Source: an uncultured Candidatus Saccharibacteria bacterium (GTDB lineage Bacteria; Patescibacteriota; Minisyncoccia; Sungbacterales; SURF-37). Taken from it: a stretch of 64,000 bases of DNA. The DNA is taken from contig CAYIKH010000001.1 of assembly GCA_964363965.1 (NCBI GenBank), positions 727 to 64,726 of the forward strand, given 5' to 3'. Positions 2,929 to 54,177 of the stretch are shown here, in pieces. A program made the position numbers and the translations under genes. How positions within the stretch are numbered: position 1 is the stretch's first letter; each line of letters begins with the position of its first letter. The notes under the pieces were generated by a model. The model saw only the letters and a program-made list of their open reading frames with translations. It was not told the DNA's origin and ran no database searches.

Positions 2929-3744
2929 ATGGATAGTCCCGAAAAACTCTTTTCGGTCAAGAACAAGGTCGTCATCATTACCGGCGGCGCAGGCATGCTG
3001 GGCATGGAGTATGCGACCGTTCTTGCTCGTGCCGGAGCGCGTGTGGTGCTCTTCGATATTGCCGATGAGCCCGTCCTCCGCGCCAAGGCCGCCGAGGTGC
3101 GTCGCCGCACCGGTCGCCGGCCCCTGGCGCTCCGCGTGGACATTACCGATGAGCGGGCGGCGAAGAATGCGGTGCGTCTGGTCATCCGGCGCTACGGGCG
3201 CGTTCACGCCCTTGTGAATAATGCGGCCATTAATCCTGAGGTGGAAGGCGGCAGCTCGCGTGCGCAGTTTTCCCCCTACGAACGCTATCCCATTGATCTC
3301 TGGCGCAAGGAGCTTGAAGTTGGGCTTACCGGCGCTTTCATCGTTACCCAGGCCGTGATTCCGGCTATGAAACGGCGGCGGGAAGGCGTCATCGTCAACA
3401 TTGGGTCCATCTACGGCGAGACCGCGCCCGACAACCGCATCTACCCGAAGGGGCAGTTTAAATCTATCGCCTATGCAACGGCGAAAGGCGCGATGCGGAA
3501 CTTCACCCGCGCGCTTGCCTCGTATTTGGCGCCGTTCCAGATCCGCGTGAACCAGCTGACGCCGGGCGGCGTCTGGGCCGGGCAGCCGCCGGCGTTCGTC
3601 AAGAAGTATTCAAGCCGCACCATGCTCGGGCGCATGGCCGAGCGCAATGATTTTAACGGCGCACTCCTCTTCCTCCTCTCCGATGCTTCGCGCTACATGA
3701 CCGGCGCCAATCTCGTGGTGGACGGCGGCTGGAGTGCGTGGTAA
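2929..3744 (+). CDS. Short-chain dehydrogenase/reductase (SDR) family oxidoreductase
   Basis: TGGAGMLG Rossmann motif, NNAAI, and the YATAKGA catalytic Y-x3-K. Confidence 0.8.
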   Translation: MDSPEKLFSVKNKVVIITGGAGMLGMEYATVLARAGARVVLFDIADEPVLRAKAAEVRRRTGRRPLALRVDITDERAAKNAVRLVIRRYGRVHALVNNAAINPEVEGGSSRAQFSPYERYPIDLWRKELEVGLTGAFIVTQAVIPAMKRRREGVIVNIGSIYGETAPDNRIYPKGQFKSIAYATAKGAMRNFTRALASYLAPFQIRVNQLTPGGVWAGQPPAFVKKYSSRTMLGRMAERNDFNGALLFLLSDASRYMTGANLVVDGGWSAW

Positions 3745-3886
3745 TACTTGTTATGTCAGAAAATTCGTCCAAAGTTCTCGGAATTGTCCCGCTGGATTTC
3801 ACCCGCGTGCCGATTCAGAAGCATTTCGTGGATTGAAGAGCGTCGGGCAATGTTCTCGGTGGTGATCCGAAGTTTCTGGCATCTCT

Positions 3887-4573
3887 ATGAAGTTTTCCTT
3901 GGTCATTCCGGCATATAATGAAGAGGAGAGTATCGGGGCGGCGGTGCGCGGTCTTCGGGATGCTCTCGGGCGCGTCGAGCATTCGTTCGAGATCATCGTG
4001 GTCAACAATGGTTCGACCGACGGGACTCCCCGCGTTCTCGAGGAGCTCCGAGCCGATGTTCCGGAGCTTGCGGTCGTGCGGGTAGACGTGAATCGCGGTT
4101 ACGGCAACGGGGTCATTGCTGGCCTCCGCGAAGCCCAAGGGGAAATTCTGGGTTGGGTGGATGCCGACAATCAGGTCGCGCCGGAAGACGTCGCGGCCGT
4201 ATATCGGGAAATCCTGCATGGGGGCGCTGATCTTGTCAAAGCCGTCCGGACGACGCGCCGTGAGTCGCGTTTCCGGAGGCTCCAGAGTGTTGTCTATAAT
4301 GCTATCTTCCGCATCCTTTTCGGCGGCAGATACCGCGATATCAACGCGAAACCGAAAATGTTTCGGCGCTCGCTTTGGGAGTCGCTCCACGTCACATCGC
4401 TTGATTTTTTCATCGATGCCGAGGTAATGATAAGGGTGATACGCGCTCGGCGTCAGATTCGGGAAGTCGAGGTATCGTGGGCGGCCCGCACCTCCGGCCG
4501 ATCGAGCGTGCAGCCGTCCGCGGCGGTCGAATTTTTGAAGAACTTGCTCCGCTATAAATTTTTTAGAGATTAA
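3887..4573 (+). CDS. GT2 glycosyltransferase, DPM1/GtrB-like polyprenyl-phosphate sugar synthase
   Basis: Begins SLVIPAYNEEESIGAAV... with a VNNGSTDGT DxD-region and a 228-aa architecture typical of Dpm1/ArnC-like enzymes. Confidence 0.75.
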   Translation: MKFSLVIPAYNEEESIGAAVRGLRDALGRVEHSFEIIVVNNGSTDGTPRVLEELRADVPELAVVRVDVNRGYGNGVIAGLREAQGEILGWVDADNQVAPEDVAAVYREILHGGADLVKAVRTTRRESRFRRLQSVVYNAIFRILFGGRYRDINAKPKMFRRSLWESLHVTSLDFFIDAEVMIRVIRARRQIREVEVSWAARTSGRSSVQPSAAVEFLKNLLRYKFFRD

Positions 4574-4578
4574 TTCGT

Positions 4579-5415
4579 ATGGAATCTCGTGCTTCCGCGT
4601 CGCTTCAGGATTCAAAGAGTGTCCATGCCGATATGCCGGTCGTGATTTTTTGCGGCGGGCGGGGCACGCGCCTCAAAGAGGAAACGGGCGCGATCCCGAA
4701 GCCCCTCGTGAAAATCGGCACGCATCCGATCCTGTGGCACATTATGAAGGGTTACCACGCCCAGGGATTCCGGAAGTTCGTGCTCTTAGTCGGGTATCTC
4801 GGTGAGAAGATAAAAGAGTATTTCTATACGTATCCGGTTTATCATGGCAGTTTCACGATCCGACCCGGTGCGAACGGGCCCAGGATCGATTACCATGACG
4901 TCCCGCCCGAAGACTGGGAGGTCACAGTGCTTGATACCGGCATTGACGTCGAAACCGGCGGACGGCTCCAGCGCGCGAAATCACATCTTGGGCAAGGGAG
5001 ATTTCTGCTCACCTACGGGGACGGCGTTGCCGATGTGAACGTAGAGGAGCTCATCCGGTTCCATGACACTCACCGTCCGGTCGTGACCATCACCGGGGTT
5101 CATCCGCCGAGCCGTTTCGGAGCCCTGGAGATGGATGGTCCGCTCGCCAAAACGTTTTTCGAAAAGCCGAGCACCCAGTCTTCCTACATCAACGGAGGTT
5201 TTTTCGTTGTGGAGCCGTCAATATTCATGTTTCTTTCCGATGACCCAAAACTGAATTTCGAGAAAGACGTTTTGCGCAAGCTCGCGCGCGAGTCAAACCT
5301 CGCGGTCTATCCCCATCACGGCTATTGGCAGTGCATGGATACCATTCGCGACGTCGAGTTCTTGAACGAGGAATGGGCCAAGAACCAAGCGCCCTGGAAA
5401 GTATGGAACGACTAA
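4579..5415 (+). CDS. rfbF: Glucose-1-phosphate cytidylyltransferase
   Basis: VIFCGGRGTRLKEETGAIPKPLV and GYHAQGF are RfbF signatures. The true start may be the ATG at 4633 (MPVVIF...). Confidence 0.8.
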   Translation: MESRASASLQDSKSVHADMPVVIFCGGRGTRLKEETGAIPKPLVKIGTHPILWHIMKGYHAQGFRKFVLLVGYLGEKIKEYFYTYPVYHGSFTIRPGANGPRIDYHDVPPEDWEVTVLDTGIDVETGGRLQRAKSHLGQGRFLLTYGDGVADVNVEELIRFHDTHRPVVTITGVHPPSRFGALEMDGPLAKTFFEKPSTQSSYINGGFFVVEPSIFMFLSDDPKLNFEKDVLRKLARESNLAVYPHHGYWQCMDTIRDVEFLNEEWAKNQAPWKVWND

Positions 5416-6410
5416 CACGCCACGCCGCCACCCCAAGGGGTGGTTTCTGGAGCAAGCGCCGAGTGCTGGTCACCGGCGGCGCGGGGTTCATTGGTTTTAA
5501 GCTCGCTTGTCATCTTCGCGATAGGGGAGCCGAGGTTACGCTCCTTGACATTAAAAAAGCATTGCCGAGCTTTGCCAACCCCGTCGACAAACGTACGTTC
5601 GTATATGTGCGCGGCAGCGTGACATCCCGGAAAACGGTTGCATCACTTCTTAAGCGCCGCAACGTCCAGACCGTATTCCATCTTGCCGCGGAGGCGATCG
5701 TGGGCCGGGCACTCCGCGATCCCGCGGCGGCGCTTGAAGCGAATGTCCGCGGCACGTGGGTGCTCCTCGAATGCGTGCGTCAAAATCCGAACGTGGCCGA
5801 GGTCGTTGTCGCGTCTTCAGACAAGGCGTACGGATCTCATGCGCGCCTTCCGTACCGCGAAGATGCCAAACTCGCCGGGCTGAATCCGTATGACTGCTCA
5901 AAAAGCTCGGCTGACCTCATTGCGCAAATGTATGCGCGTACCTATGCGTTGCCGGTTGCCGTTGCCCGGTGCGGGAACGTCTACGGCGGAGGGGACCTCA
6001 ACTGGAGTCGCCTTGTTCCCGATGCCCTCCGATCGCTCGCGAGCGGCACGCCGCTTCAGTTGAGGAGTGACGGCACGCATACACGGGATTACGTGTACGT
6101 GGATGATGTTCTCGACGGCTACCGCGTCCTAGCCGAGAATATTCGCCGGAAAAAACTCTCCGGCGAAGCGTTTAACTTCGGAACGAATGAACCGCTTTCG
6201 GTGCGCGATGTTTTGGGCCTAATCGCCCGCGCCGCGGGCCGAATGGTGCCCTCGAGAATCGCGAACACGCCCTCGCGCGAAATTCGTTCGCAGTATTTGG
6301 ATTGGAGTAAGGCTCGGCGCGTTCTGGGTTGGCGCCCGAATGTGCGGCGAACAATCGGTTTCAAGAAAACTGCCGACTGGTACACGGATTTTTTCAGCCG
6401 GCCAACATGA
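5403..6410 (+). CDS. rfbG: CDP-glucose 4,6-dehydratase
   Basis: FWSKRRVLVTGGAGFIGFKL, DKAYG and YDCSKSSADLI (Y-x3-K) are present. The start was chosen at MERLTR, so the full ORF frame extends further upstream; the gene overlaps the rfbF end. Confidence 0.75.
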   Translation: MERLTRHAATPRGGFWSKRRVLVTGGAGFIGFKLACHLRDRGAEVTLLDIKKALPSFANPVDKRTFVYVRGSVTSRKTVASLLKRRNVQTVFHLAAEAIVGRALRDPAAALEANVRGTWVLLECVRQNPNVAEVVVASSDKAYGSHARLPYREDAKLAGLNPYDCSKSSADLIAQMYARTYALPVAVARCGNVYGGGDLNWSRLVPDALRSLASGTPLQLRSDGTHTRDYVYVDDVLDGYRVLAENIRRKKLSGEAFNFGTNEPLSVRDVLGLIARAAGRMVPSRIANTPSREIRSQYLDWSKARRVLGWRPNVRRTIGFKKTADWYTDFFSRPT

Positions 6411-7690
6411 TGAATCTTGAATATCCCAAACACCACTTGGTGAACGTCGGGCATATACCCAATTGCCAAATATGCAATTCCGCGAAACTCCACACGGTCT
6501 TAGACCTCGGGCACCAGCCGTTATGCGACACGTTGCTCACCGACGCGATGCTTAACGAACCCGAGAAAACGTATCCGCTGCGGATGATGTGGTGCGAAGA
6601 GTGCACCGGCGCTCAAATTGATTACTGCGTTGACGGGAGTGAAGTGTACTATCCGGGTTATCCCTATAAGAGCGGTGTTACGAAGGAGCTCGTCGAGTAT
6701 CAAGTAAACATCGCGCGCGGTCTCGTGGGAAAATATGGATTAAAAGCTGGCGATCTCGTCGTTGATGTCGGTTCGAACGACGGAACGTTGCTCAGCGGGT
6801 TCACGGGTACGGGCATTCGGACGCTCGGAGTCGAGCCAACCAATATCGCGAAGATGGCCAAAGCCAGCGGCATCGAAACTGTGCAGTCCTTTTTCGACAT
6901 CAAGACGTCGCAGGCGATCAAGGAGCAATACGGTTCGGCCTCCGTAGTTATCACGACAAATACATTCGCCCACATGCGCACGATCGGAGAGTTCATCATG
7001 GGGGCCTATAATCTCCTGAACGATGACGGCGTATTCATGTCCGAAACCCATTATCTATTGGACGTCGTTCGGGGAGGGCAATTCGACACGATATATCACG
7101 AACATTTGCGGACGTACTCGCTCGCGTCCTTGATTCGATTGTTCGATCAGTATGATTTTACCCTGACCGATGCGGAACGGGGGGAGAGATACGGCGGCAA
7201 TATTCGCGTGTATGTTGCGAAGGGGAAGGGGAGGCCCGTCTCCCCGGCAGTCGCGGCGTTATTGCAACTGGAACAATCATCCGGGCTTGGAGAATATAAA
7301 ACGTATGCGGCATTTGCCGAGCGCGTGAAAAAAGCGCGCCTCGAATTCATGGATTTTCTCATTCATGCTAAAAAGGCCGCGAAGTCCATTGTCGGGAACT
7401 CGTGCCCGGGGCGATCCGTGACGCTTCTCAATTACTACGGGGTAGATCCGGAATTGCTGCCGTACGTCGCCGAACAGCCCGCTTCTTTGAAGTTGGGCAT
7501 GTACGTGCCGGGCACGCATCAGCCGGTGGTCGCGAACCAGCGGCTCATTGACGAGCAGCCGGATTTTGTCGTGCTGTTGGCGTGGCACTACGCAGAACCC
7601 ATTATGGAGCAATTGAAAGCTCGGGGACTGAAGTCGGATTTCATCATTCCGCTGCCCGATTTTCGAATCGTGAAAAATTCCGAGGTGTGA
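6407..7690 (+). CDS. NDP-hexose C-methyltransferase (TylC3/Methyltransf_13+14 type), CDP-pathway associated
   Basis: An N-terminal Cys-rich Zn motif (CQICNS...CDTLL...CEEC) precedes the SAM fold (VVDVGSNDGTLL) and a C-methyltransferase C-terminal domain. Its ATGA overlaps the rfbG stop. Confidence 0.7.
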   Translation: MMNLEYPKHHLVNVGHIPNCQICNSAKLHTVLDLGHQPLCDTLLTDAMLNEPEKTYPLRMMWCEECTGAQIDYCVDGSEVYYPGYPYKSGVTKELVEYQVNIARGLVGKYGLKAGDLVVDVGSNDGTLLSGFTGTGIRTLGVEPTNIAKMAKASGIETVQSFFDIKTSQAIKEQYGSASVVITTNTFAHMRTIGEFIMGAYNLLNDDGVFMSETHYLLDVVRGGQFDTIYHEHLRTYSLASLIRLFDQYDFTLTDAERGERYGGNIRVYVAKGKGRPVSPAVAALLQLEQSSGLGEYKTYAAFAERVKKARLEFMDFLIHAKKAAKSIVGNSCPGRSVTLLNYYGVDPELLPYVAEQPASLKLGMYVPGTHQPVVANQRLIDEQPDFVVLLAWHYAEPIMEQLKARGLKSDFIIPLPDFRIVKNSEV

Positions 7691-7720: not shown

Positions 7721-8647
7721 ATGGCCCAGTTAAAAATCGCAATTCTCGGAGCGAGCGGCATCGGAAGATTTCATTTCAGAGAGTTTGCGCGCGCGGGAGT
7801 CAAAGTCACCGCCATTCTCGGAAGCAGTTACGAAACCGCCGAGAGGACTGCCGTCATGCTCTCTTCGGAATTCGGCCTGCGTCCGAAAGCGTATTCGGAA
7901 TTGGGCGTCCTTATTGAAGCCGAGCGCCCGGATGCCGCGAGCGTTTGCACTCCTCCCGAACTTCACTATGACCAGGTAAAGATGTGCCTCGCGGCGGGAT
8001 TGCATGTTCTTTGCGAAAAGCCGTTTGTCCTTAACTCCGATGGCGATGCGAGCGGTCTCGCGACCGAGCTCGTTCGGTTGGCGAAGAAACGGGGGCGAGT
8101 CATTACGGTGAACACCCAATGGCCTTCCGTTTTACGGTACGTACAGCCGTTCGTTGATGTTTCCAAAATCCGGGACTTTTTCATGTATACCCAGCCGGGC
8201 GTCCGGGGGGCAGGCATATTGAGGGATCACCCGCCGCATGCGAACAGTATGCTGGTAAAACTCGTTCCGGATGGACGAGCGGAAGACATAGAATTTCTGG
8301 TATCTTCTCCAGAAGAGATGGATGTCAATTTCGAATATCGCGCGCGCGGCTCACGTTGCGCCGTCCGCTACAAATTCAAATTCAAAGCCGCGAGGCCCCG
8401 CGATCTTGAATTTTCCATCAACGGGGTTGCGTTCAAGCGGCATATCGGGGAAGGCTATAGCCAGAAACTCGTTACGGGTAAAACGGAAATTGATATCGAG
8501 GATCCGTTCAAAACTTCGATTGGAATGTTCGTTGGCGCCATCGAGGGGAGGAGTTCGCCATTGATCAGCACGCAAGAGATAATTGAAAATGTGCGGCTGC
8601 AGGACAGAATCATCAAGGCGTATGTAGCGGAAAAGGGCAAGCAGTAA
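7721..8647 (+). CDS. Gfo/Idh/MocA family NAD(P)-dependent oxidoreductase (candidate sugar 4-ketoreductase)
   Basis: The N-terminal Rossmann motif IAILGASGIGRFH is followed by LHVLCEKP. Confidence 0.75.
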   Translation: MAQLKIAILGASGIGRFHFREFARAGVKVTAILGSSYETAERTAVMLSSEFGLRPKAYSELGVLIEAERPDAASVCTPPELHYDQVKMCLAAGLHVLCEKPFVLNSDGDASGLATELVRLAKKRGRVITVNTQWPSVLRYVQPFVDVSKIRDFFMYTQPGVRGAGILRDHPPHANSMLVKLVPDGRAEDIEFLVSSPEEMDVNFEYRARGSRCAVRYKFKFKAARPRDLEFSINGVAFKRHIGEGYSQKLVTGKTEIDIEDPFKTSIGMFVGAIEGRSSPLISTQEIIENVRLQDRIIKAYVAEKGKQ

Positions 8648-8787: not shown

Positions 8788-10749
8788 TTGTTCATGTTTA
8801 CCCTGCTGATATTGAGTCTTTTTTTCGCCGCCACCCTTGCTTTCGGATGCGTTGTTGCCGCTGTTTTTTTGCCGAGCTCCGAACGGCGTTGGTACGTTGT
8901 GGCGCCGATCGTGCTCATTATTGGCCTGAACGGCTACGTAATGATCCTGAACCTCGTTGCATATTTGGTCCCTGTCCAGCGCGCGTTCTGGGTGGTGCTT
9001 ACGGGGATGAGTTTGGCCGCAGCGGCGGGATTGATGGCGATGCGGCGCCGGAAAACATCCCTGATTGCGCCGGATGACTTGAAACCTCGCCAACGGCAAT
9101 TCCTCGTGTTCACGACATTCGTTGTCATGCTCCTTGCCGGGTTCGTTTCCTACCTCACACTTGGAGATGATATCTATCTCGTGAATATGCCGCTTGCATC
9201 AACCATCAGCGAGGGAAACTTCCCCGTGCTCGATCCATCCGATCCGAGTTTTCGCGTCGCCTACCATTACGGGCCCGACCTGCTCATCGCGGCCCTTCAC
9301 CGTACGGCCCATATACCGCTCTGGCTCGGCTATGATATTCAAACCTTCCTTTTCATTGGTGCGGCGTTCCTCATGGCGTTTGCCCTCGCGCGTTCCGTTG
9401 TTTTGCGTTTCCGGAGCGCGTTCCTTGCCGCATTGCTGATGCTCTATGGGAGCGGCCTCGTCTGGATGAAGGGGTTCCACGGCATTGCCGTATTTTGGCA
9501 AAAATTAAGCGGCGGAAGCGCCGGCCCGGCCCCATGGAAATTCTTTGCCGACATGGCATTTCCTAATTTTGATTCGAGCATTGCGGCCACCACGAGCCAT
9601 ACCGTTATCATGGGCATGCCAATCGTCCTGCTCGTGTTGTATCTCTATAACCAGGCCATTGACGCCGAGCGCGATGCTTGGCTTCGGCCGACACTGCTTG
9701 CTGGCGTGCTTTACGGCTACACCGCTTTCATAGTCGAAACGCATTTCATCGTGATGTTCGCGGCATTTATCGGCATGCTGTTTCTCGAGGGAACGCGGTA
9801 CCTCTGGTCCGGGCGGCCTGCCGCTCGGCGCGATCAACTTCTGCGCCTTGCCGGCGTTACGGGTATTGTCATCGTCGTCGCCCTGCCCCTCGCATTTCTC
9901 CAGGGCGGGATACTCACGACCGTGAGCGATCCCGGCGCGACGCATCGATTCGAGCTGGTCAAACATTTTTGGAGCCAAGGCATTACCGATAAGCAGGTGC
10001 TTCCGTTCCGCTGGGCATTCTTCCAGGACTTCGGTTTGCCCCTTATCTTGTTTCTCCCCGCCCTTTATTTTTTCCGGAATGATCGGCGCGTTCAGTTCAT
10101 TGCGCTTATCGCCCTCGGAGCATTCCTGGTGCCGCTCCTTATCCGCTACACGCCATCACCCCGGGAAATGGAACGGCTTTTCGGTTTTGCGACACCGCTC
10201 TTTGCGTTTCTTGCCGGTCTTTTTCTTTCGGAGGTCGCTGCGGCATTCACGCTCAATCGTCATAGAAAAATGATCTCGTTCGCATTGCTTCTCCCCATCT
10301 TTGCCATGGTTGGCACCGCTCTTGCGGCCCAGGCCTTCGGTATTGCGTACCCGCTTGTGCGGCCCCAGGGCAGACATTATATGCTTGCCGCCGTTCCTCC
10401 CGAAGTTCCGGCAATTGACCAGAAGGCCTACGTCTGGATTCGGGAGCACACCATCCTTCAGGATTGGTTTTTCCCCTACAGTCAGGATTTTATCCGGGAA
10501 GTCGGGCGCTTCACTCCCGGGCCGTATTTTCCGGGCGTGACTCGGCCGAGTGTCATTACTGACTACGAGGAGGCCGTTCGTTCATGCAGTCGCGAGTCGT
10601 TTGCAAAACTCGGGGTTACCTACCTCTACGTTTCACCGCGGTTTCCGATCGCCGATTTTAAAATCCGGTGTCTGCCGAATCTTCACGCGACTCCGCTCTA
10701 TCAAGATGGTGTGGGCCCAGAAATGCGGAGCGTGTATCGGCTTGAATAA
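8788..10749 (+). CDS. Large polytopic membrane protein with C-terminal soluble domain; candidate GT-C-type glycosyltransferase
   Basis: 653 aa with more than 10 predicted hydrophobic helices, then a ~150-aa non-hydrophobic tail. No motif was confidently assigned. Confidence 0.45.
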   Translation: MFMFTLLILSLFFAATLAFGCVVAAVFLPSSERRWYVVAPIVLIIGLNGYVMILNLVAYLVPVQRAFWVVLTGMSLAAAAGLMAMRRRKTSLIAPDDLKPRQRQFLVFTTFVVMLLAGFVSYLTLGDDIYLVNMPLASTISEGNFPVLDPSDPSFRVAYHYGPDLLIAALHRTAHIPLWLGYDIQTFLFIGAAFLMAFALARSVVLRFRSAFLAALLMLYGSGLVWMKGFHGIAVFWQKLSGGSAGPAPWKFFADMAFPNFDSSIAATTSHTVIMGMPIVLLVLYLYNQAIDAERDAWLRPTLLAGVLYGYTAFIVETHFIVMFAAFIGMLFLEGTRYLWSGRPAARRDQLLRLAGVTGIVIVVALPLAFLQGGILTTVSDPGATHRFELVKHFWSQGITDKQVLPFRWAFFQDFGLPLILFLPALYFFRNDRRVQFIALIALGAFLVPLLIRYTPSPREMERLFGFATPLFAFLAGLFLSEVAAAFTLNRHRKMISFALLLPIFAMVGTALAAQAFGIAYPLVRPQGRHYMLAAVPPEVPAIDQKAYVWIREHTILQDWFFPYSQDFIREVGRFTPGPYFPGVTRPSVITDYEEAVRSCSRESFAKLGVTYLYVSPRFPIADFKIRCLPNLHATPLYQDGVGPEMRSVYRLE

Positions 10750-45772: not shown

Positions 45773-45804
45773 GCGGCGGCAGAGCCTTCTGCCGCCGTTT
45801 TTTT
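45773..45804 (+). terminator. Intrinsic terminator
   Basis: cggcggcaga-gcct-tctgccgccg followed by a T7 run. Confidence 0.7.
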
Positions 45805-48253: not shown

Positions 48254-48439
48254 CCGAAATTCTAAATCCGAATATCGAAATCCGAAACAAATTCGAATTT
48301 TCAAATTCTAAATTTCAAACACGTTTCGGTTTTTAGAGTTTAGGTATTGGGATTTGTTTCGAATTTCGTGCTTCGTGCTTCGGATTTCAGTCTTGGTATA
48401 AACCTGGTTTCCTGGATTAAGGTAATAACTAATGGAAGC
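48254..48439. repeat. Low-complexity intergenic repeat region
   Basis: Degenerate repeats of aaattctaaat / cgaaatccgaa, plus a tandem tcgtgct x2 (48366-48379). Confidence 0.5.
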
Positions 48440-49324
48440 ATGAATAAAATCCCCATTGGCATCATCGGCGTAGGCATGGTCGGCGGCGCCTATGCCGATT
48501 GGTTCGAAACCCAGGGGCATCCCATCCGTAGATACGATCTTTTCAAAAGGATCGGCTCGCTCGAGGAGGTGAACGGCGTTGAGCTTGTACTCATCGCCGT
48601 GCCTACGCCATTTGATGAGGCCACGGACCGATTTGACGGGAGAGCCGTCGAGAGCGCCGTCTCTTCGCTGGTTGGTATGAAGACCGTGATCATCAAGTCA
48701 ACGGTTCTTCCCGGGACGACCGAGATGCTCCAGCAAAGATACCCCCAGCACCGCATTCTTTTTTCGCCGGAATTTCTTACGGAATCAAGCGCCGCCGATG
48801 ACGTTAGTCATCCAAAGATAAACCTCATCGGTTATACCGAAGCATCCCGTTCCGTTGCGCCGGATGTCTTGTCCCTCTTCGCGCGTGCGCCCTTTGAGAA
48901 GATAATGCCGAGCGGCGAGGCCGAATTATTCAAGTACCTCCGTAACGCCTTCTTCGCCACGAAAGTTATCTTTTTCAATCAGATGTATGATCTTTGCACG
49001 AAGCTCGGCATTGACTACGAGGCCATCCGCGAATGCGTAGCGCACGACCCCTGGATCGGGGGACAACACACGATCATCCGGCACAAGGGCTACCGCGGCT
49101 ACGGCGGCAAGTGCCTGCCCAAGGACACGCGCGCATTCCTCCGATTCTCGGCGGAGCATGGCGTCAACCAGCAGCTCCTCGATGTAGTGGATGAGATCAA
49201 CCAGAAGATCACCGCCATTCCCGGCTCATCGACAGAACGTGAAGGTGAAAGGATGGGTGTGAAAGAGAAGTTTGAGTCCCGAGTCCTGAATCAGGAATCC
49301 CGTCAGAGGCGAGGCTCGCCCTGA
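48440..49324 (+). CDS. UDP-glucose/GDP-mannose dehydrogenase family protein, short form lacking C-terminal UDP-binding domain (possibly truncated)
   Basis: IGIIGVGMVGG NAD motif and the GGKCLPKD catalytic Cys motif. At 294 aa it ends in a non-homologous tail where the ~100-aa C-terminal domain would be. Confidence 0.55.
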   Translation: MNKIPIGIIGVGMVGGAYADWFETQGHPIRRYDLFKRIGSLEEVNGVELVLIAVPTPFDEATDRFDGRAVESAVSSLVGMKTVIIKSTVLPGTTEMLQQRYPQHRILFSPEFLTESSAADDVSHPKINLIGYTEASRSVAPDVLSLFARAPFEKIMPSGEAELFKYLRNAFFATKVIFFNQMYDLCTKLGIDYEAIRECVAHDPWIGGQHTIIRHKGYRGYGGKCLPKDTRAFLRFSAEHGVNQQLLDVVDEINQKITAIPGSSTEREGERMGVKEKFESRVLNQESRQRRGSP

Positions 49325-49332
49325 TGGGCGGC

Positions 49333-49374
49333 AGGAATCAGGAATGTTGATGCGCTTCATGATTCCTGATTCTT
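49333..49374. terminator. Hairpin at convergent gene junction (possible bidirectional terminator)
   Basis: gaatcaggaat (49335-49345) pairs with attcctgattc (49362-49372). There is no clean U-tract. A third copy of aatcaggaat lies at ~49292 inside the upstream gene tail. Confidence 0.4.
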
Positions 49375-49384
49375 AGTTCCCGTA

Positions 49385-50803
49385 CTATCGGCCGCTCCGC
49401 TGCAAGAGCTTAAGAGTAGTTTTTAGCAAGATGGTGAGATCGAGAAAAAGAGAGCGATTTTTAATATAGTAAAGATCGTATTGGATTTTAGTCGGGGCAT
49501 CGGCCACTGAGGCATCGTTTTCCATGTTGGTCTGGGCCCAGCCGGTGAGGCCTGGTAAAACTAGCTCGCGCATGCGGTAGAATGGTATTTCATTCTCGAG
49601 GGCAGATACGAATTCCGGACGCTCCGGCCGCGGGCCGACGAATGACATCTCGCCTAAAATGATGTTCCAAAACTGAGGTAGCTCATCAAGGTAGGTTTTG
49701 CGCAAGAACTCGCCAACCCGGTAGGATCGCGGATCTGGACCAACGGCGCTTTTTTCATGCCCCATCTTCTCCGCGCCAAGCACCTGACTTCTAAATTTCA
49801 GGAAATTGAAAATACGGCCGTTTTTGCCGACTCTGGCCTGGCGGAAGAAAATGATGCCGTCGCCTTCACGGGCGCGGCGCTTTTTGTAATTAACGATGTC
49901 GAGGGGCGTGGAGAGGATAATACCCAAAGCAATAAACGGCAGGAGTATAAGAGCCACAACTCCCAGGATAGTGACCAGCATCAAGTCGAGTATGCGCTTA
50001 GCGAATTCATACCTGGGACGATGCATGCCGACAAGATTCTCCAGGAACCACGTTTCGGTGATGAGCGAGACCGGAACTTTTCCAGTTACGTTTTCATAAA
50101 AGCGCCTGAGATCAACTATGCTTACACCCAGCGGCACGACTCCAAAAGGCGTTTTGGCTAAAGTCGGGGCGCGCCTGGCTTCATGAGCCACGACGATCCG
50201 GCCTATCCGCTTTTCGCGAATAATCCTGCCCAGTTCCCCGCTGAATACCGGCACTCCAGCCGGAAGCGGCGGCTGTGAGGCGCGGTTATTATTTTCAAGG
50301 AAGAATGTGGGGATGAACCCAAGCTGGGGATTGACCGTAAGAAAAGCCGCCAGTTCCAGCACCTCGGGAGCAAAGCCCCAAAAAAGCACCCGTTCTTTGG
50401 TTCTTTGAATGAGGAGGGTGTTGTAAATCTTTCGCCACCCAAAAAGAAATACGGTCAAGGTAAAAAAGATAATTATAAGGGTGGCCAGGGGCCGCAGGCG
50501 GAATTCAGGAATAAGATAGAAGAGCAGGACCGTGACGACAAAATTAAAGGCCATGGCTCTGGCCAGGCGCTCGAAGAACGGCGGTTCGTTTTTAGCTATT
50601 TTGAGGTCATAAAGGCCAAAGGCGGCCAGCCCCCCGAACCAAAGCGCCATCAGGAACGGCGCGGCAAAAAGATAAAGCTTGGTTATCGTCGGCTCAGGCC
50701 TGCCGCCGTAGCGCAAGATAAGCGAGGCGGCGAGCGCCGCGGCAAAGATCACAAGGTCGCAAAGGACGAGAATGAAATTTTTGAGTGCAATCGGCCGGTG
50801 CAT
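49385..50803 (-). CDS. Polyprenyl-phosphate sugar-1-phosphate transferase (WbaP/WcaJ-like initiating phosphoglycosyltransferase)
   Basis: An N-terminal multi-TM region precedes the Bac_transf C-terminus MSFVGPRPERPEFV...LPGLTGWAQ. Confidence 0.8.
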   Translation of the reverse strand: MHRPIALKNFILVLCDLVIFAAALAASLILRYGGRPEPTITKLYLFAAPFLMALWFGGLAAFGLYDLKIAKNEPPFFERLARAMAFNFVVTVLLFYLIPEFRLRPLATLIIIFFTLTVFLFGWRKIYNTLLIQRTKERVLFWGFAPEVLELAAFLTVNPQLGFIPTFFLENNNRASQPPLPAGVPVFSGELGRIIREKRIGRIVVAHEARRAPTLAKTPFGVVPLGVSIVDLRRFYENVTGKVPVSLITETWFLENLVGMHRPRYEFAKRILDLMLVTILGVVALILLPFIALGIILSTPLDIVNYKKRRAREGDGIIFFRQARVGKNGRIFNFLKFRSQVLGAEKMGHEKSAVGPDPRSYRVGEFLRKTYLDELPQFWNIILGEMSFVGPRPERPEFVSALENEIPFYRMRELVLPGLTGWAQTNMENDASVADAPTKIQYDLYYIKNRSLFLDLTILLKTTLKLLQRSGR

Positions 50804-50819
50804 TTTAGGCAGTGAAGTT

Positions 50820-51980
50820 TTAGCGGTTTTGATAAACTGTGATGGTCTTGGCGATCATGGCCTCAATGTCAAAACCTGTGGCGATGCGTTTTTGGGCTTC
50901 TTGGGCCATGGCTTGACATCGGTCGGGTCTGTCGATTAGAGCCAAGATGGCCTTGGCTATAGCTCCAGCGTTTTTGGGCGGCACGATCAGGCCGCTTTTG
51001 CCGTCAGAGATGAGATCAGGGATGCCGCCGACATTCGTGGCTACAACCGGCAAACCGGCGGCCATAGCTTCCATAATAGAATAGGGCAGACCTTCTTTCA
51101 CTGACGGCAGTACGAAAATATCAAGTCCCTTGAGGTAGCGCGCTGCATCTGGCATGAAGCCAATGAGATGCACGATATTGCCGAGGCCAAGCGTCTGAAT
51201 TTGCCGTTCGATGGCAACGCGATCTTCGCCTTCACCGATGACCATAACTTTGAACTTTAAATTTTGAGCTTTGGATTTTATTAGCTTGATGGCATCAATC
51301 AGGTAAGTCAGGCCCTTATTTTTAGTGAGTTCGGCAATAGTGCCAATAAGAACTAAATCGTGATCCTCTTCCTGCCCAATGGCCTGCATAAAAAAGGCCC
51401 GGGCTGATTCTCGGGGCCGGAAGTCAATTGGGGCGATGCCATGGGCAATGAGATAAAGCTTGGTTTCCGGAATAAACCAGCGCGCCGTTGCAAGATCCGC
51501 CCGATCTATGAGGATTATTTTATTCTGGAAAAGCGACGAAAGCCAGCTCAGGAAAGAGATGGTCAATTTCTGCCACCATGCCCGATCTTCTCTAAACGGC
51601 CAGCCATGTACCGTGAAAGTCACCAGTGACCAGTGACCAGTAACCAGTGACGCAAGCTTGGCCGCTATGGCGCCGAGGCCGCCGACTTTTGAGCTATTAA
51701 GGTGGACGATATCCGGTTTTTCGCGGTAAATAATTTTTATAAATGAAAAGAACGTCAGCAACTCTTTGGCGAAGTTGATGTCGCGTTCTAGGCCGGCTAT
51801 TGAAATAATACGGACACGTCGCTCTTCAAGACGCTTCACCAGCGCTCCTCCGCCGCCGCAGACCACAGCAATATCAAATTGATCCGGCGGCAGGCGAGTA
51901 GCCAGGTCATAAATATATTTTTGGGCGCCGCCCCAATTAGATTTTGTGATTACATATAGAATTTTTTGACGCTGATTCAT
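50820..51980 (-). CDS. GT4 (GT1-fold) glycosyltransferase
   Basis: VLPSVKEGLPYSIMEAMAAGLPVVATNVGGIPDLI is the E-x7-E region of GT4. Confidence 0.8.
   Translation of the reverse strand: MNQRQKILYVITKSNWGGAQKYIYDLATRLPPDQFDIAVVCGGGGALVKRLEERRVRIISIAGLERDINFAKELLTFFSFIKIIYREKPDIVHLNSSKVGGLGAIAAKLASLVTGHWSLVTFTVHGWPFREDRAWWQKLTISFLSWLSSLFQNKIILIDRADLATARWFIPETKLYLIAHGIAPIDFRPRESARAFFMQAIGQEEDHDLVLIGTIAELTKNKGLTYLIDAIKLIKSKAQNLKFKVMVIGEGEDRVAIERQIQTLGLGNIVHLIGFMPDAARYLKGLDIFVLPSVKEGLPYSIMEAMAAGLPVVATNVGGIPDLISDGKSGLIVPPKNAGAIAKAILALIDRPDRCQAMAQEAQKRIATGFDIEAMIAKTITVYQNR
51622..51651 (-). repeat. Heptanucleotide tandem repeat (ACCAGTG)x4 inside GT4 coding sequence
   Basis: accagtg accagtg accagta accagtg ac encodes SLVTGHWSLVT on the minus strand. 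The unit length is not a multiple of 3. Confidence 0.8.
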
Positions 51981-52183
51981 ATAGAAATCCTCATAGATAC
52001 TGGTTATTCCTTAGCAACAAGTTATCCACACTTAGTAGTGTTGTAATACCGCAGGGGGGGTAATAAAATGAGCTCAACGCCCAGTAAGAGGTTGTCGAAC
52101 CTTTTCAATCAATAATACTGGAGCGGAGTCACGTTCGTTCCTTAGACAACGTTGATTCTGGTTTAATTTTTCATACTAAGCAT

Positions 52184-52978
52184 ATGGGTGCTAAAACAAT
52201 TCGGTATTCGCATCGTGATGCCGCGATGGTCATTTTTGTCGCGGCGATTTTCATACTGGCAGTAGTCTATAGCGTCTTTTCAACTACTATCGGTGAAAGT
52301 GTTAACACCGGCGGAACGCTGACCGTGAGTGGGGCCTCAACCTTAACTGGAGCAATCAATGCTTCTTCAACCTTGCAGGTTACTGGTGACGGGCTTTTCT
52401 ATGATCAGCTCTCGGCTGGCGCCTCCACCAACACTCCGACCACGACCTTCAACGTCACTGGTTCGGGCTACTTTACAGGCGGTCTTGGCGTAGGTTATGC
52501 CACCACAGGAACGGGCAACCTCCTTGTCTCGAATTTGGGTGTCTTTCAGCACCGCTTAGGGGTGGCATCCACCTCGCCGGTGCGCAGTTTTGAAGTCGGC
52601 GGCTCCGGCCTCTTTTCTGACGGACTCGGCGTTGGCTACGCTACCACCAGCGGATTCCGGGTCGCCGGCACCGGCCTCTTTGACAACCGCGTCGGGGTTA
52701 CGGCAACGACGGCTCCTTACCAGGAGCTCGGCGTCGGGGGTGACATTGCCGCGAGTTCTAACGCCACGACGACCGTTTCGGCAGAATCAACCGGAACGGA
52801 GATCGGCAGTTGCATAGAGTTGAAAGGCGGCAGGGCCCAGGGCGAGATGAGGTGGATACGCATCTACGTCGGCGGATCGGGCGCCACCAACACTACTGCG
52901 GCCGGTACTATTCCTTCGGCGGTGATCCAGGCCGGCGGGGTTGGACTCTTAGTCATCCAGGAAGGTCGCTGTCAGTAA
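52184..52978 (+). CDS. Thr/Gly/Ser-rich repeat-containing surface protein with N-terminal membrane anchor/signal
   Basis: N-terminal hydrophobic helix (VIFVAAIFILAVVYSVF), then ~40-aa internal repeats (GLGVGYATT...GTGLF...) with very high T/G/S content. Confidence 0.5.
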   Translation: MGAKTIRYSHRDAAMVIFVAAIFILAVVYSVFSTTIGESVNTGGTLTVSGASTLTGAINASSTLQVTGDGLFYDQLSAGASTNTPTTTFNVTGSGYFTGGLGVGYATTGTGNLLVSNLGVFQHRLGVASTSPVRSFEVGGSGLFSDGLGVGYATTSGFRVAGTGLFDNRVGVTATTAPYQELGVGGDIAASSNATTTVSAESTGTEIGSCIELKGGRAQGEMRWIRIYVGGSGATNTTAAGTIPSAVIQAGGVGLLVIQEGRCQ

Positions 52979-53043
52979 TCTCTTAACTGGGCGACCTATA
53001 ATGGTTTGACTTTGTCGGCATTAGGTCGCTCTATTGGCTAATT

Positions 53044-54177
53044 ATGGGACACTTTTTCTTTCGTCTTGGGATTTATGTAGGGTTGCTTGGCGCTCCGCTG
53101 TTAGCCTTTGGTGCCACGGTGGAGCTGTCAATCACTGCTCAAGCTGCAGGCAAAAATTACACGGTTAGCGGCAGTATGACTTCCATTGTTCTTTCCGGCA
53201 ATGACTTTCAGGTAACTCTCGTGAATGGCGAAAACATTACGGTTGAATCACCGGACAAATCCAAGCTGACTTTTGCCGACGCGCCGACCACCTTTACCGA
53301 GACCTGCGGTTCAAGCACTTATTCGGTCCGCATTGAGAAATCAAGCGGCGCGTCCCAGACATTCACTATGACGCCTACGGCCACCACTTGCGGCGCAGCC
53401 ACCGGCAGCGGCGGAGGAGGAACCGGCACAACCGGAGGAGGAGGCGGAGGAGGCGGGGGCGGCGGCGGTCCTTCTTATGCGGCAATAACAACGCCAACTA
53501 CTGCCCCGGCACCTGCACCAGCCCCGGCTCCAGCATTTGGCATAACTTCGGATCTGGCCGCCGGTTCGCAGTCAAACGAAGTAGCGCAACTCCAAGCTTA
53601 TTTAGCTTCTGATTCATCCCTCTATCCTGAAGGTCTGGTCACCGGCTATTACGGTCAGCTAACAGCGGCCGCGGTCAGACGTTTCCAAGCCAAGTACGGC
53701 TTGCCACAGGTTGGCCGAGTTGGCCCTCTTACGCGAGTCAAGTTGGCTGAAATTTTTGGGCCCGTGGCTACGCCAGCACCAACTCCGGCTCCAGCACCAA
53801 CACCCACTCCAGCTCTCCCAGCCGGAGCCGCTATTACCAAGACGCTTCAGCGCGGCTCACAAAACGATGAAGTCTCAACCCTTCAGGCCTTCTTAGCTAA
53901 AGATCCGGCTATTTATCCGGAGGGACTGGTTACTGGTTACTTTGGTCCAGCCACCGAAGGGGCGGTAAAGCGCTTCCAAGAAAAATACGGCATTGATTCT
54001 ATTGGCGTTGTCGGGCCCAAGACGCGTTCTAAGCTCAACGAACTCCTCGGCGCCGCCACGGCGCCAACCCCAGCGCCTACTCCGGCGCCTGCCGGCGATG
54101 ACGCGGCCAAGATCAAGGCGCTTCAGGAACAGCTTAAGGCCTTAGAGGACCAATTGAAAACCCTGCAAGGCCAGTAA
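53044..54177 (+). CDS. Secreted protein with poly-Gly tract, PT-rich linkers, two PG_binding_1-like peptidoglycan-binding domains and C-terminal coiled coil
   Basis: Signal-like N-terminus, G-run (GGGGTGTTGGGGGGGGGGGG), TPAPAPAPAP / PAPTPAPAPTPTP linkers, two copies of ...LQA(Y/F)LA.D...YPEGLVTGY(Y/F)G..T..AV.RFQ.KYG(L/I)...G.VGP.T..KL, and a terminal KALQEQLKALEDQLKTLQ. Confidence 0.6.
   Translation: MGHFFFRLGIYVGLLGAPLLAFGATVELSITAQAAGKNYTVSGSMTSIVLSGNDFQVTLVNGENITVESPDKSKLTFADAPTTFTETCGSSTYSVRIEKSSGASQTFTMTPTATTCGAATGSGGGGTGTTGGGGGGGGGGGGPSYAAITTPTTAPAPAPAPAPAFGITSDLAAGSQSNEVAQLQAYLASDSSLYPEGLVTGYYGQLTAAAVRRFQAKYGLPQVGRVGPLTRVKLAEIFGPVATPAPTPAPAPTPTPALPAGAAITKTLQRGSQNDEVSTLQAFLAKDPAIYPEGLVTGYFGPATEGAVKRFQEKYGIDSIGVVGPKTRSKLNELLGAATAPTPAPTPAPAGDDAAKIKALQEQLKALEDQLKTLQGQ

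Follow-up and report, generated by a model that had tools for sequence, protein, structure and literature searches.

The described systems closest to the locus reported here are the slg loci for S-layer glycosylation in Paenibacillus alvei, Geobacillus stearothermophilus, and Aneurinibacillus thermoaerophilus. They belong to bacteria with a monoderm-type envelope and combine a WbaP-type initiating enzyme (WsfP/WsaP), nucleotide-sugar genes (Rml), methyltransferases, a TagF-like gene (wsfC), and an O-oligosaccharyltransferase (O-OTase) that either unites a Wzy_C domain with C-terminal TPRs (WsfB) or is accompanied by an adjacent TPR protein (WsaA/WsaB), with the target gene located nearby. The slg sugars of Aneurinibacillus include GDP-glycero-manno-heptose. 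These traits, with a putative O-OTase and candidate targets, recur in a locus at positions 2929-54177 of a 64,000-nucleotide stretch of bacterial DNA (the window; assembly GCA_964363965.1, contig CAYIKH010000001.1), in which the gene of a Wzy_C protein with a C-terminal TPR domain (Wzy_C-TPR) follows a long island of sugar genes and precedes the genes of two secreted proteins. Its gene content makes it plausible that the locus is a cell-surface glycan system in which surface proteins are glycosylated by Wzy_C-TPR.

The combination of Wzy_C with a C-terminal TPR domain has been reported for WsfB, the S-layer O-OTase of P. alvei, and for PglL, and WsaB has a neighbouring gene for a TPR protein (PMC2943079). 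The likeness of Wzy_C-TPR to WsfB is one of domain architecture, and the candidate targets in the window are small (264 and 377 amino acids [aa]) and not recognisable as S-layer proteins. The locus exceeds the slg loci two- to threefold in size; two nonulosonate routes, C-methyl sugars, a GT75 mutase, and two pairs of a GT2 enzyme and a polytopic membrane protein come in addition, whereas neither an ABC transporter nor Wzx was found in this window.

The O-OTases PglL, TfpO (PilO), and PglS share with Wzy_C-TPR the Wzy_C family with its conserved Arg and His. They transfer glycans en bloc from undecaprenyl pyrophosphate and tolerate a range of donors, as would suit a conserved enzyme encoded beside variable sugar genes, and their genes often lie directly beside the target gene; the ligase gene treated here is directly followed by that of a secreted Gly/Thr-rich family, a candidate acceptor, in 12 of 68 loci. 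PglL-type genes adjoin target genes in 21 of 31 cases; simple similarity cannot separate WaaL from PglL, for which the PglL_A motif (PF15864) serves as the criterion (PMC3643930). Wzy_C-TPR differs from these enzymes in that it lacks the PglL_A motif, carries a long TPR domain behind a 13th transmembrane (TM) helix, has a neighbour that is not a type IV pilin, and belongs to an organism of the candidate phyla radiation (CPR).

An earlier note on this DNA, made from the sequence alone, held that the combination of modules matches no described system. This was overstated: since every module has a described counterpart (the slg loci, PglL/TfpO, the O-glycosylation of Tannerella, the Gtr/YfhO/Pmt systems, and MtdL), the finding is not categorically new. 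New are the CPR setting, the conservation across the phylum of a WaaL-TPR gene whose site is fixed while the island beside it varies, the repeated proximity of this gene to one for a secreted Gly/Thr-rich family, two GT-C-type proteins without a known family (with the GT-C fold computed for one of them, MemA, only), the occurrence of a GT75 mutase in a surface-glycan context outside antibiotic pathways, and the large share of a small genome (~50 kb) that is spent on sugars. In CPR bacteria, which have ~1-Mb genomes and a life attached to other cells, glycobiology has hardly been studied; in the library searched, no relevant literature was found on O-antigen ligases (Wzy_C enzymes) or on nonulosonic or pseudaminic acid in Patescibacteria or Parcubacteria. 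The investment of ~50 kb in sugars and the fixed site of the ligase gene suggest that surface glycans are central to the lifestyle of these bacteria, with possible roles in host attachment, phage evasion, or immune-like recognition.

The probable ligase Wzy_C-TPR and its genomic site

The ligase gene opens what would be the conserved core of the system (45923-54177). Besides the WaaL-fold ligase, whose TPR domain would face outward, the core encodes a polyprenyl-phosphate hexose-1-phosphate transferase (PGT) of the WbaP type, a GT4 enzyme, and two secreted proteins:

45923-48253 (+), Wzy_C (WaaL-fold) ligase with extra TM helix and C-terminal TPR domain; conserved core gene
48347-49324 (+), short nucleoside diphosphate (NDP)-sugar dehydrogenase homolog without C-terminal domain (Pfam N-terminal and central domains only; TIGR03026)
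49385-50803 (-), PGT of the WbaP/WcaJ type, initiating enzyme (Pfam Bac_transf, 7e-53; TIGR03025, 302 bits, above cut-off)
50820-51980 (-), GT4 glycosyltransferase (Pfam Glycos_transf_1, 2e-41)
52184-52978 (+), secreted Gly/Thr/Ser-rich protein with signal anchor and conserved TTIS..GGTLTVSGASTLTG motif; candidate acceptor
53044-54177 (+), secreted protein with two PG_binding_1 domains (Pfam, 9e-26) and three PT/AP linkers; candidate acceptor or wall anchor; terminator at 54294-54323

Gene identities were assigned by Pfam and NCBIfam scans of the window proteins, with PDB and fold searches for selected proteins. For comparison, the 60 window proteins were searched by tblastn against 87 loci, 83 of which carry a Wzy_C-TPR gene; the loci of relatives were sampled 10 kb to either side of the ligase gene. 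The matches agree with the GT4 enzyme, the WbaP-like initiating transferase, and the Wzy_C-TPR protein that the earlier note had recognized. Relatives retain this short form of the dehydrogenase (278-305 aa), which makes a pseudogene improbable.

Residues 235-388 of Wzy_C-TPR match Pfam family PF04932 with 77.0 bits (cut-off, 31.7). Since a PDB sequence search returned only TPR matches for this protein and none for MemA, fold searches were needed; they assign to Wzy_C-TPR a 12-TM WaaL fold with an outer catalytic loop. The nearest solved structure is the lipopolysaccharide ligase WaaL of Cupriavidus metallidurans (PDB 7tpg/7tpj), from which Wzy_C-TPR differs by an identity of just 18%, an extra TM helix, and a TPR domain of ~270 residues, and by an organism in which no lipid A-core acceptor is expected. 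The 13th TM helix places the TPR domain on the same side as the catalytic loop. The ligase His motif H[NSQ]x9Gxx[GTY] is present at H361 in all 120 homologs examined, among which R240, R300, R314, and R359 are likewise invariant; in WaaL of Escherichia coli, the conserved residues are R215, R288, and H338. Members of the Wzy_C-TPR family are encoded by at least 581 species genomes of Patescibacteria.

The recurrence of murB (27 loci) and secA (30 loci) downstream of the Wzy_C-TPR gene, often within 500 bp, places the gene at a fixed chromosomal site. The content upstream varies from locus to locus: NeuB is present in 25, NeuA in 19, NeuC in 18, and a 2-hydroxyacid dehydrogenase in 15 loci; L026 and L055 have a set of C-methyltransferase, RmlB, and GT2b, and L021 and L048 have GmhA; and in many loci nothing upstream of the ligase gene resembles this window. 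In the closest of the long relatives (L023), the entire sampled flank of 10 kb upstream still consists of glycan genes. In the window, a strong terminator (45773-45798) sets the Wzy_C-TPR gene apart from the sugar island.

Despite these differences in neighbouring sugar genes, Wzy_C-TPR is 37-65% identical across genomes, a pattern that fits a ligase or O-OTase with relaxed donor range and a conserved acceptor rather than a repeat-unit-specific Wzy polymerase; Wzy polymerases diverge strongly with their repeat units. It is therefore quite improbable that Wzy_C-TPR is such a polymerase and that the locus makes a repeat-unit capsule or exopolysaccharide, even though the Wzy_C family of Pfam includes some polymerases and Wzy-dependent capsule loci typically encode an initiating enzyme of the WbaP type. 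The invariant His motif speaks against a polymerase, as does the absence of a Wzz/PCP co-polymerase, Wzx, or an export protein from the window, where none of the 60 proteins has a Pfam match to Polysacc_synt (Wzx), Wzz, or ABC families. The WaaL fold, the His motif in 120 of 120 homologs, and the lack of Wzx and Wzz are all in line with the earlier view of a surface-glycan system built around Wzy_C-TPR rather than a plain O-antigen or capsule locus.

Candidate acceptors and the proposed glycosylation route

The product of the gene at 52184-52978 (264 aa; 17% Gly, 14% Thr) has a basic N-terminus and one hydrophobic segment, followed by a motif that is conserved in relatives (~Y-G/S-A-TTIS-TNI-N/S-TGGTLTV-S/T-GASTLTG) and looks like a signal-peptide cleavage region that leads into a Thr/Ser/Gly-rich mature end. 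It had been described as a Thr-rich repeat protein; secretion and Gly/Thr richness hold, but the repeat shrinks to a single pair of imperfect copies, and self-alignment gave no significant internal repeat. The protein of 377 aa encoded at 53044-54177 is, as predicted, a peptidoglycan-binding protein with PT linkers.

A hidden Markov model of the N-terminal 85 residues of the Gly/Thr-rich family, built from the same loci whose open reading frames (ORFs) were then searched, finds 22 ORFs. In 12 of the 68 loci with sufficient downstream sequence, the Gly/Thr-rich homolog begins 110-370 bp past the Wzy_C-TPR gene on the same strand, and in 5 further loci it lies within 6.3 kb of the ligase gene; a homolog of the peptidoglycan-binding PT-linker protein usually comes directly after it. 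In the clade of the window itself, the short NDP-sugar dehydrogenase homolog, the PGT, and the GT4 enzyme are inserted between the ligase and the Gly/Thr-rich gene. The family is of modest size, with 111 cluster representatives (E ≤ 1e-3) among 1.84 billion proteins, and some of its matches are repeats within proteins of 1,400-2,000 aa. Modules resembling the peptidoglycan-binding and the Gly/Thr-rich protein are repeated also in giant proteins of 1,400-2,400 aa from related bacteria (L050, 15065-22174; P0158, P0162, and P0169).

From the observed gene identities, folds, and synteny we infer the order of steps in glycan assembly, the identity of donors and acceptors, and the use of a protein as acceptor. 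A lineage-variable sugar factory (2929-45748) would supply a CDP-6-deoxyhexose (C-methylated), a dTDP-6-deoxyhexose (C- and O-methylated), a GDP-heptose or 6-deoxysugar, tailored and perhaps converted to a furanose by the GT75 mutase, and two CMP-nonulosonic acids, which TagB-like transferases would attach. The WbaP-type PGT would prime undecaprenyl phosphate, on which some six cytoplasmic transferases (the GT4, a GT2, a Glyco_trans_1_2-type, and three TagB-like enzymes) would build a hetero-oligosaccharide from five donor routes. The glycan would be moved across the membrane by a flippase encoded elsewhere, with an EamA/DMT protein of the island as alternative candidate, and then transferred en bloc by Wzy_C-TPR to a conserved acceptor recruited by the TPR domain; it would most likely be attached to Ser/Thr residues of the Gly/Thr-rich protein and to the PT linkers of its peptidoglycan-binding neighbour. 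Two extracytoplasmic polytopic enzymes would add further sugars from polyprenyl-phosphate sugars made by small GT2 enzymes.

That a protein is the acceptor of the ligation falls slightly short of an even chance in our estimate. The claim of protein O-glycosylation in the earlier note draws support from the architecture of Wzy_C-TPR and from the downstream families in 12 of 68 loci, but several observations weigh against it. Wzy_C-TPR has no match to PglL_A (PF15864) or Wzy_C_2 in Pfam at E ≤ 0.001, so membership in the PglL family proper fails, though the enzyme may still work like an O-OTase. Some 30 loci have murB or secA within 500 bp after the ligase gene and no candidate substrate nearby, and the model that detects the Gly/Thr-rich family derives from the loci in which it was applied. 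The window encodes no Wzx, ABC transporter, or other recognised flippase, and Pfam and NCBIfam scans found no RmlA within it; HddA, HddC, NeuB, and NeuA score below curated equivalog cut-offs. Moreover, the island may serve several glycoconjugates instead of one glycan.

The recurrent adjacency of the ligase gene to a secreted Ser/Thr-rich family, as between O-OTases and their targets, and the architecture reported for WsfB and PglL make it somewhat less likely that Wzy_C-TPR, at the end of an otherwise identical assembly pathway, is a WaaL-like ligase that acts on a non-protein acceptor (peptidoglycan, a secondary cell-wall polymer, or a membrane glycolipid), with the downstream proteins as wall partners. 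To our knowledge, no lipid A-core acceptor has been described in these bacteria, and wall polymers of monoderms are normally attached by LCP enzymes, not by Wzy_C proteins. Such an acceptor would nevertheless agree with WaaL as the nearest solved structure, the missing PglL_A motif, the many genomes in which the ligase gene immediately precedes murB, a peptidoglycan gene, and the PG_binding_1 domains of the neighbouring protein; TPR domains also scaffold polysaccharide export, and the NCBIfam scan yielded matches of the BcsC, PgaA, and PrsT type.

With a protein as acceptor, Wzy_C-TPR could be a general O-OTase of Parcubacteria with a relaxed donor range, a reading we put forward more tentatively, which would coat a conserved Gly/Thr-rich surface protein and PT-linker wall proteins with strain-specific glycans whose genes form a hypervariable island at one fixed chromosomal position. 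If so, these uncultivated, host-dependent bacteria would possess a glycoprotein coat that varies in the manner of serotypes; here it would include C-methyl deoxysugars, possibly a furanosidic heptose or deoxysugar, and two nonulosonic acids. The ligase or O-OTase with its putative acceptor-recruiting TPR domain, the two candidate acceptors, the two putative GT-C-type enzymes, the GT75 mutase, and the TagB-like nonulosonate transferases are hypotheses that can be cloned, and a donor-promiscuous O-OTase of this kind could serve glycoengineering.

Donor routes and transferases of the sugar island

Six-frame ORF listing and translation show that positions 2929-54177 are almost fully coding, with 48 genes or gene remnants in overlapping or tightly packed reading frames. 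The near-unbroken plus-strand array seen at first reading is real (45 of 48 genes); the exceptions are the genes at 38217-39566, 49385-50803, and 50820-51980. The features upstream of the ligase gene are:

2929-3744 (+), SDR oxidoreductase at the left end of the island, placed by GC content (Pfam adh_short_C2, 4e-44)
3887-4573 (+), small GT2 enzyme, polyprenyl-phosphate sugar synthase-like, ArnC/AglJ/DPM-like (Pfam Glycos_transf_2, 6e-29; NCBIfam ArnC, AglJ, dolichyl-P-hexose transferase, PpgS)
4579-5415 (+), glucose-1-phosphate cytidylyltransferase, RfbF-like, CDP-hexose (TIGR02623, 2e-87, 293 bits)
5325-6410 (+), NDP-glucose 4,6-dehydratase, best match CDP-glucose type; start codon unrefined (TIGR02622, 2e-57)
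6329-7690 (+), NDP-sugar C-methyltransferase 1, TylC3 type (Pfam Methyltransf_13 and Methyltransf_14)
7721-8647 (+), GFO/IDH/MocA oxidoreductase (Pfam, 4e-22)
8788-10749 (+), MemA, polytopic membrane protein with GT-C glycosyltransferase fold (fold search); rare family
10809-11283 (+), TagF2-like pseudogene, 5'-truncated and frameshifted (tblastn, 56-57% identity to TagF2 residues 304-340 and 345-450 in two frames)
11303-13210 (+), MemB, polytopic membrane protein, putative second extracytoplasmic glycosyltransferase (no Pfam or PDB match; homologs beside GT2)
13228-13986 (+), small GT2 enzyme, polyprenyl-phosphate sugar synthase-like, partner of MemB (Pfam GT2, 4e-18; NCBIfam AglJ, dolichyl-P-hexose transferase, PpgS)
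13737-14852 (+), S-adenosylmethionine (SAM) methyltransferase with hydrophobic C-terminal tail; real start probably near 13926 (Pfam Methyltransf_23, 8.5e-24)
14853-15191 (no strand), intergenic gap with GC-rich inverted repeats, the sole sizeable one inside the island (read from the sequence)
15192-16253 (+), NanM-type sugar O-methyltransferase, paralog 1 (TIGR04371, 1.5e-37; 67% identical to 20651-21700)
16263-17543 (+), NDP-sugar C-methyltransferase 2 (Pfam Methyltransf_13 and Methyltransf_14; 36% identical to copy 1)
17558-18622 (+), RmlB, dTDP-glucose 4,6-dehydratase (TIGR01181, 387 bits, above cut-off)
18633-19484 (+), RmlD, dTDP-4-dehydrorhamnose reductase (TIGR01214, 281 bits, above cut-off)
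19566-20120 (+), 184-aa protein, no family assigned (weak DUF218 match, E 0.04)
20256-20648 (+), small cupin, weakly FdtA/WxcM-like (Pfam Cupin_2, 6e-5; FdtA, 1e-4)
20651-21700 (+), NanM-type sugar O-methyltransferase, paralog 2 (Pfam; 67% identical to paralog 1)
21758-22747 (+), NeuB-family ulosonate synthase without SAF domain (Pfam NeuB, 1e-43; NCBIfam NeuB, 135 bits; PseI, 105 bits)
22744-23904 (+), 386-aa protein, no family assigned (no Pfam, NCBIfam, or PDB match)
23994-24725 (+), CMP-ulosonate synthetase, PseF/NeuA-like (Pfam CTP_transf_3; TIGR03584, 3e-42)
24722-26131 (+), TagB/TagF-like GT-B enzyme, likely nonulosonate transferase (Pfam Glyphos_transf, 2e-6; NCBIfam BFO_1060 family, 9e-18)
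26128-27501 (+), TagB/TagF-like GT-B enzyme, likely nonulosonate transferase (Pfam Glyphos_transf, 2e-9; BFO_1060 family, 8.5e-17)
27437-28327 (+), possible CmcI/Methyltransf_24-type methyltransferase, weak; real start probably 27512 (Pfam, E 0.002 and 0.018)
28293-29264 (+), NDP-sugar epimerase/reductase, best match GDP-fucose synthase type (NF047922, 1e-32)
29174-30292 (+), GT75-family NDP-pyranose/furanose mutase homolog (PDB MtdL 7xpr, E 2.3e-16)
30294-31229 (+), NDP-sugar epimerase/dehydratase (Pfam Epimerase, 2e-27)
31226-31948 (+), sugar-1-phosphate guanylyltransferase, HddC/ManC-like (NF049965, 3e-44; NF052502, 2e-51)
31981-33051 (+), GHMP kinase, D-glycero-D-manno-heptose 7-phosphate kinase-like, HddA (NF049969, 6e-40)
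33065-33634 (+), GmhB, heptose 1,7-bisphosphate phosphatase (NF006506, 2e-46)
33631-34356 (+), GmhA, sedoheptulose 7-phosphate isomerase (TIGR00441, 3.5e-52)
34374-35231 (+), NDP-sugar epimerase/reductase (Pfam Epimerase, 2e-43)
35248-35763 (+), RmlC-family NDP-4-keto-6-deoxysugar 3,5-epimerase (Pfam, 4.5e-46; TIGR01221, 2e-39)
35785-36909 (+), Glyco_trans_1_2-type glycosyltransferase (Pfam, 8e-9)
36825-38243 (+), third TagB/TagF-like protein (30% identical to 26128-27501 over full length, E 2e-68; weak Glyphos_transf and BFO_1060 matches)
38217-39566 (-), GT2 glycosyltransferase with long C-terminal extension, PglI/WcaA-like (Pfam GT2, 2e-18)
39427-40533 (+), D-2-hydroxyacid (phosphoglycerate-type) dehydrogenase (Pfam, 1e-53; synteny)
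40542-41678 (+), NeuB nonulosonate synthase with SAF domain (Pfam, 3e-71; TIGR03569, 263 bits)
41682-42923 (+), NeuC, hydrolysing UDP-GlcNAc 2-epimerase (TIGR03568, 356 bits, above cut-off)
42920-43636 (+), CMP-nonulosonate synthetase, NeuA (Pfam CTP_transf_3; TIGR03584, 5e-55)
43675-44532 (+), EamA/DMT transporter, conserved here in close relatives, followed by terminator 44551-44574 (Pfam, 2e-15; synteny)
44645-45748 (+), GFO/IDH/MocA oxidoreductase, followed by strong terminator 45773-45798 (Pfam, 1e-22)

The Pfam and NCBIfam matches substantiate the five nucleotide-sugar routes named in the earlier note (CDP-hexose, a second 6-deoxyhexose, GDP-heptose, and two CMP-ulosonates). Its two C-methyltransferases are likewise present, whereas of the four or more other SAM methyltransferases three are solid and one (27437-28327, E 0.002) is a weak candidate. 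All four enzymes of the GDP-D-glycero-alpha-D-manno-heptose pathway are encoded side by side (31226-34356) but score below the curated equivalog cut-offs, with HddA and HddC furthest below, so that the assignment is made at the family level.

In the nonulosonate route at 40542-43636, NeuC scores 356 bits (cut-off, 236), NeuB 263 (cut-off, 400), and the cytidylyltransferase, with PseF as best match, 187 (cut-off, 206). Since NeuC exceeds its cut-off and Pfam and NCBIfam scans of the window found no aminotransferase for pseudaminic or legionaminic acid (Pse/Leg), the enzymes point to a product like N-acetylneuraminic acid (Neu5Ac) rather than Pse or Leg for this, the better-supported nonulosonate. 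A homolog of the 2-hydroxyacid dehydrogenase (39427-40533) is conserved directly upstream of NeuB in 15 loci and might, speculatively, supply a hydroxyacyl (glyceroyl-type) substituent. The EamA/DMT gene is kept after the CMP-nonulosonate synthetase gene in L006, L009, L023, and L088; the DMT superfamily includes lipid-sugar flippases of the ArnE/F type and nucleotide-sugar transporters, and the protein may be the missing flippase or a CMP-sugar exporter. In the other ulosonate pathway, the 386-aa protein appears to represent an unassigned step; it is co-conserved with the SAF-less NeuB-like gene and the cytidylyltransferase in several loci (L011-L013, L043, and L053).

The three TagF-like proteins are mutually related (28-30% identity), and a decayed fourth copy, also noticed before, is confirmed by tblastn as a truncated and frameshifted remnant (10809-11283). 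Two of the genes come directly after a CMP-ulosonate synthetase gene. Against Pfam PF04464 (Glyphos_transf; cut-off, 22.1), two copies score 27.5 and 37.2 bits and the third 16.3 bits. The polyol-phosphate (teichoic-acid-like) component once ascribed to these proteins was rejected because the Pfam and NCBIfam scans revealed no gene for the supply of CDP-glycerol or CDP-ribitol (TagD, TarI/TarJ) in the window; the proteins score better against the Pse/Leg transferase family of Tannerella (NF046086, BFO_1060; E 9e-18, 8.5e-17, and 1.6e-5), yet with 64, 61, and 24 bits they lie far below its cut-off of 200, which therefore indicates a likely function rather than a family assignment. In Tannerella forsythia, proteins of the BFO_1060 group, which have a TagB-like domain, are genetically required for the addition of pseudaminic or legionaminic acid to the O-glycan (PMC5420450). 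The TagF-like proteins are thus more likely to be nonulosonate transferases than polyol-phosphate transferases. The O-glycosylation system of T. forsythia (Tanf_01245/BFO_1060) resembles the one proposed here also in its complex O-glycan with nonulosonic acid, deoxysugars, and methylated sugars, and in the location of the transferase genes beside CMP-sugar genes, with the window proteins matching the family at E 1e-17. It differs in that the window proteins reach just 61-64 bits against the cut-off of 200, in the O-OTase of Bacteroidota, which is different and poorly defined, and in the aminotransferase for Pse/Leg, which is missing here, where NeuC and NeuB point to a Neu5Ac-type acid.

The RGP/GT75-like mutase suggested by the earlier note is supported by its match to MtdL (E 2.3e-16), although the Pfam RGP family gives no match to 29174-30292 even at E ≤ 10. 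It aligns with MtdL (7xpr) over residues 44-305, with DDD, PRGFP (containing the nucleophilic Arg), GDPDID, Q, and RFDD conserved. The equivalents of active-site residues Asp195, Gln229, Arg257, and Asp260 are kept, whereas S228 is replaced by Met and H287 is uncertain. Hyg20 and the plant UAM/RGP proteins are likewise GT75 NDP-pyranose mutases. Unlike MtdL and Hyg20 from antibiotic pathways, the homolog is encoded in a surface-glycan locus beside GDP-heptose genes.

Two DPM1-like GT2 enzymes and two large polytopic membrane proteins had been predicted, and both pairs are present: the GT2 enzymes match NCBIfam polyprenyl-phosphate sugar synthases, and the structure check, run on MemA, yielded a GT-C membrane fold. 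Small GT2 enzymes paired with large polytopic enzymes are known from three-component systems (GtrA/B/C, CsbB-GtcA-YfhO, Ppm1-Pmt, and ArnC-ArnE/F-ArnT), which share with the locus the GT-C fold of MemA and, in relatives, a SemiSWEET-like gene between the GT2 gene and the MemB homolog. MemA and MemB, in contrast, fall outside any described GT-C family, with the fold computed for MemA alone. The Ppm1/Pmt-like logic read into these pairs is therefore borne out as to the pairing and the fold of MemA but not as to protein as the acceptor, since GT2/GT-C pairs act on polysaccharides, teichoic acids, and lipids no less often than on proteins and the fold of MemA is silent on the acceptor. PDB sequence searches gave nothing for MemA, MemB, or the 386-aa protein. 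The two membrane proteins have no detectable mutual sequence similarity, which rules out that they are simple paralogs.

Both membrane proteins are rare, with 9 homologs of MemA (none in the 87 compared loci) and 6 of MemB among 5.8 billion proteins. One MemA homolog lies in a shorter island of a relative, in the order C-methyltransferase, MemA, NeuB, carbamoyltransferase, NeuC, NeuA, and EamA. The pairing of MemB with a small GT2 enzyme recurs in other genomes. In two loci of other Patescibacteria (L089 and L090), the MemB homolog beside a small GT2 gene adjoins nusG-secE; in L089, a 135-aa MtN3/SemiSWEET-like gene (3241-3648) lies between the two, whose product may be a small flippase of polyprenyl-phosphate sugars.

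The occurrence of MemB and its GT2 beside nusG-secE is one of several observations that would suit a mosaic of independent modules (nonulosonate, heptose, and deoxysugar modules and two GT2/GT-C systems for side chains), acting on different targets and gathered at a recombination-prone, variable site. Modules upstream of the ligase gene (NeuBCA; Rml, C-methyltransferase, and GT2b; GmhA) occur singly in different genomes, the 50 kb contain internal terminators, a pseudogene, and an intergenic gap, and about six cytoplasmic glycosyltransferases face five or more donor routes. Such a mosaic, which would be compatible with either kind of acceptor, is nevertheless doubtful, given the co-orientation of 45 of 48 genes with overlapping or tight frames, a uniform GC content equal to that of the housekeeping flank, and the presence of one initiating transferase and one ligase.

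Integrity of the locus and its flanks

Identical genes are found on metagenome contigs from Hainich groundwater (H43; 0.1- and 0.2-µm fractions), to which NeuB and a version of Wzy_C-TPR shorter by 8 residues led; look-ups of the exact sequences of Wzy_C-TPR, SecA, MemB, and NanM paralog 1 returned no match. The nearest named relative of Wzy_C-TPR (65% identity) belongs to a metagenome-assembled genome of Candidatus Sungbacteria, and all remaining relatives are Parcubacteria or Patescibacteria; the source organism is a groundwater parcubacterium of the CPR that resembles Sungbacteria.

Independent replicate contigs agree with the window at 99.9-100% over positions 1798-4339, 24712-28490, and 35941-58253, and a fourth carries the same set of C-methyltransferase 2, RmlB, RmlD, and unassigned gene (~16.7-20 kb), so an assembly artefact inside the locus is unlikely, and the possibility that an ordinary locus had been split by an assembly error is not borne out. 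A chimera of loci from several organisms might be suspected from the low read coverage (3-7x), the fragmented public contigs, and the departure of the window from an independent contig left of 1798. It is highly improbable, however, in view of the replicate contigs, a 66.9-kb NCBI contig with an identical MemB, the uniform GC content from 2929 onward, and relatives that hold subsets of the same modules in the same order.

The GC content is 0.51-0.59 across the island, like that of the housekeeping genes to its right, and steps from 0.42 to 0.62 at its left end (2929-3744). The profile gives no sign of an island of foreign origin; the part with odd GC content is instead the first 2.9 kb. A recent duplication or transposon-borne island was ruled out because long DNA repeats and insertion-sequence-like elements are absent both from the borders of the island and from its interior. 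Scans of the whole 64 kb detected no tRNA genes, nor did any Rfam family exceed its gathering score.

The gap at 14853-15191, in which a perfect GC-rich hairpin (CCCCGCCCCGACCGCGGTCGGGGCGGGG) is accompanied by another inverted repeat (CAGCACATAAATTT...AAATTTATGTGCTG), is probably a terminator plus a promoter or operator between two transcription units. Directly left of the island, the window and the independent contig have in common a CDP-alcohol phosphatidyltransferase gene (1857-2669, minus strand; GC, 0.43), which might be a phospho-alcohol transferase of the glycan system or a lipid gene. Left of 1798, the window departs from independent contig L092 of the same population, which carries a full methyltransferase gene; the window retains just the first ~20 codons of this gene (1798-1856), its GC content falls to 0.37-0.40, and it turns into AT-rich sequence (GC, 0.28-0.40) with a phosphonate-binding protein gene (734-1642, minus strand). 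The break, which lies outside 2929-54177, reflects either a rearrangement in one strain or, at the edge of the contig, a chimeric join. To the right of the locus, two tandem small genes of the S-adenosylmethionine decarboxylase family (56381-57181; 37% identical over 65 aa), which are conserved in relatives, lie between the gene of a ribosome hibernation factor and secA.

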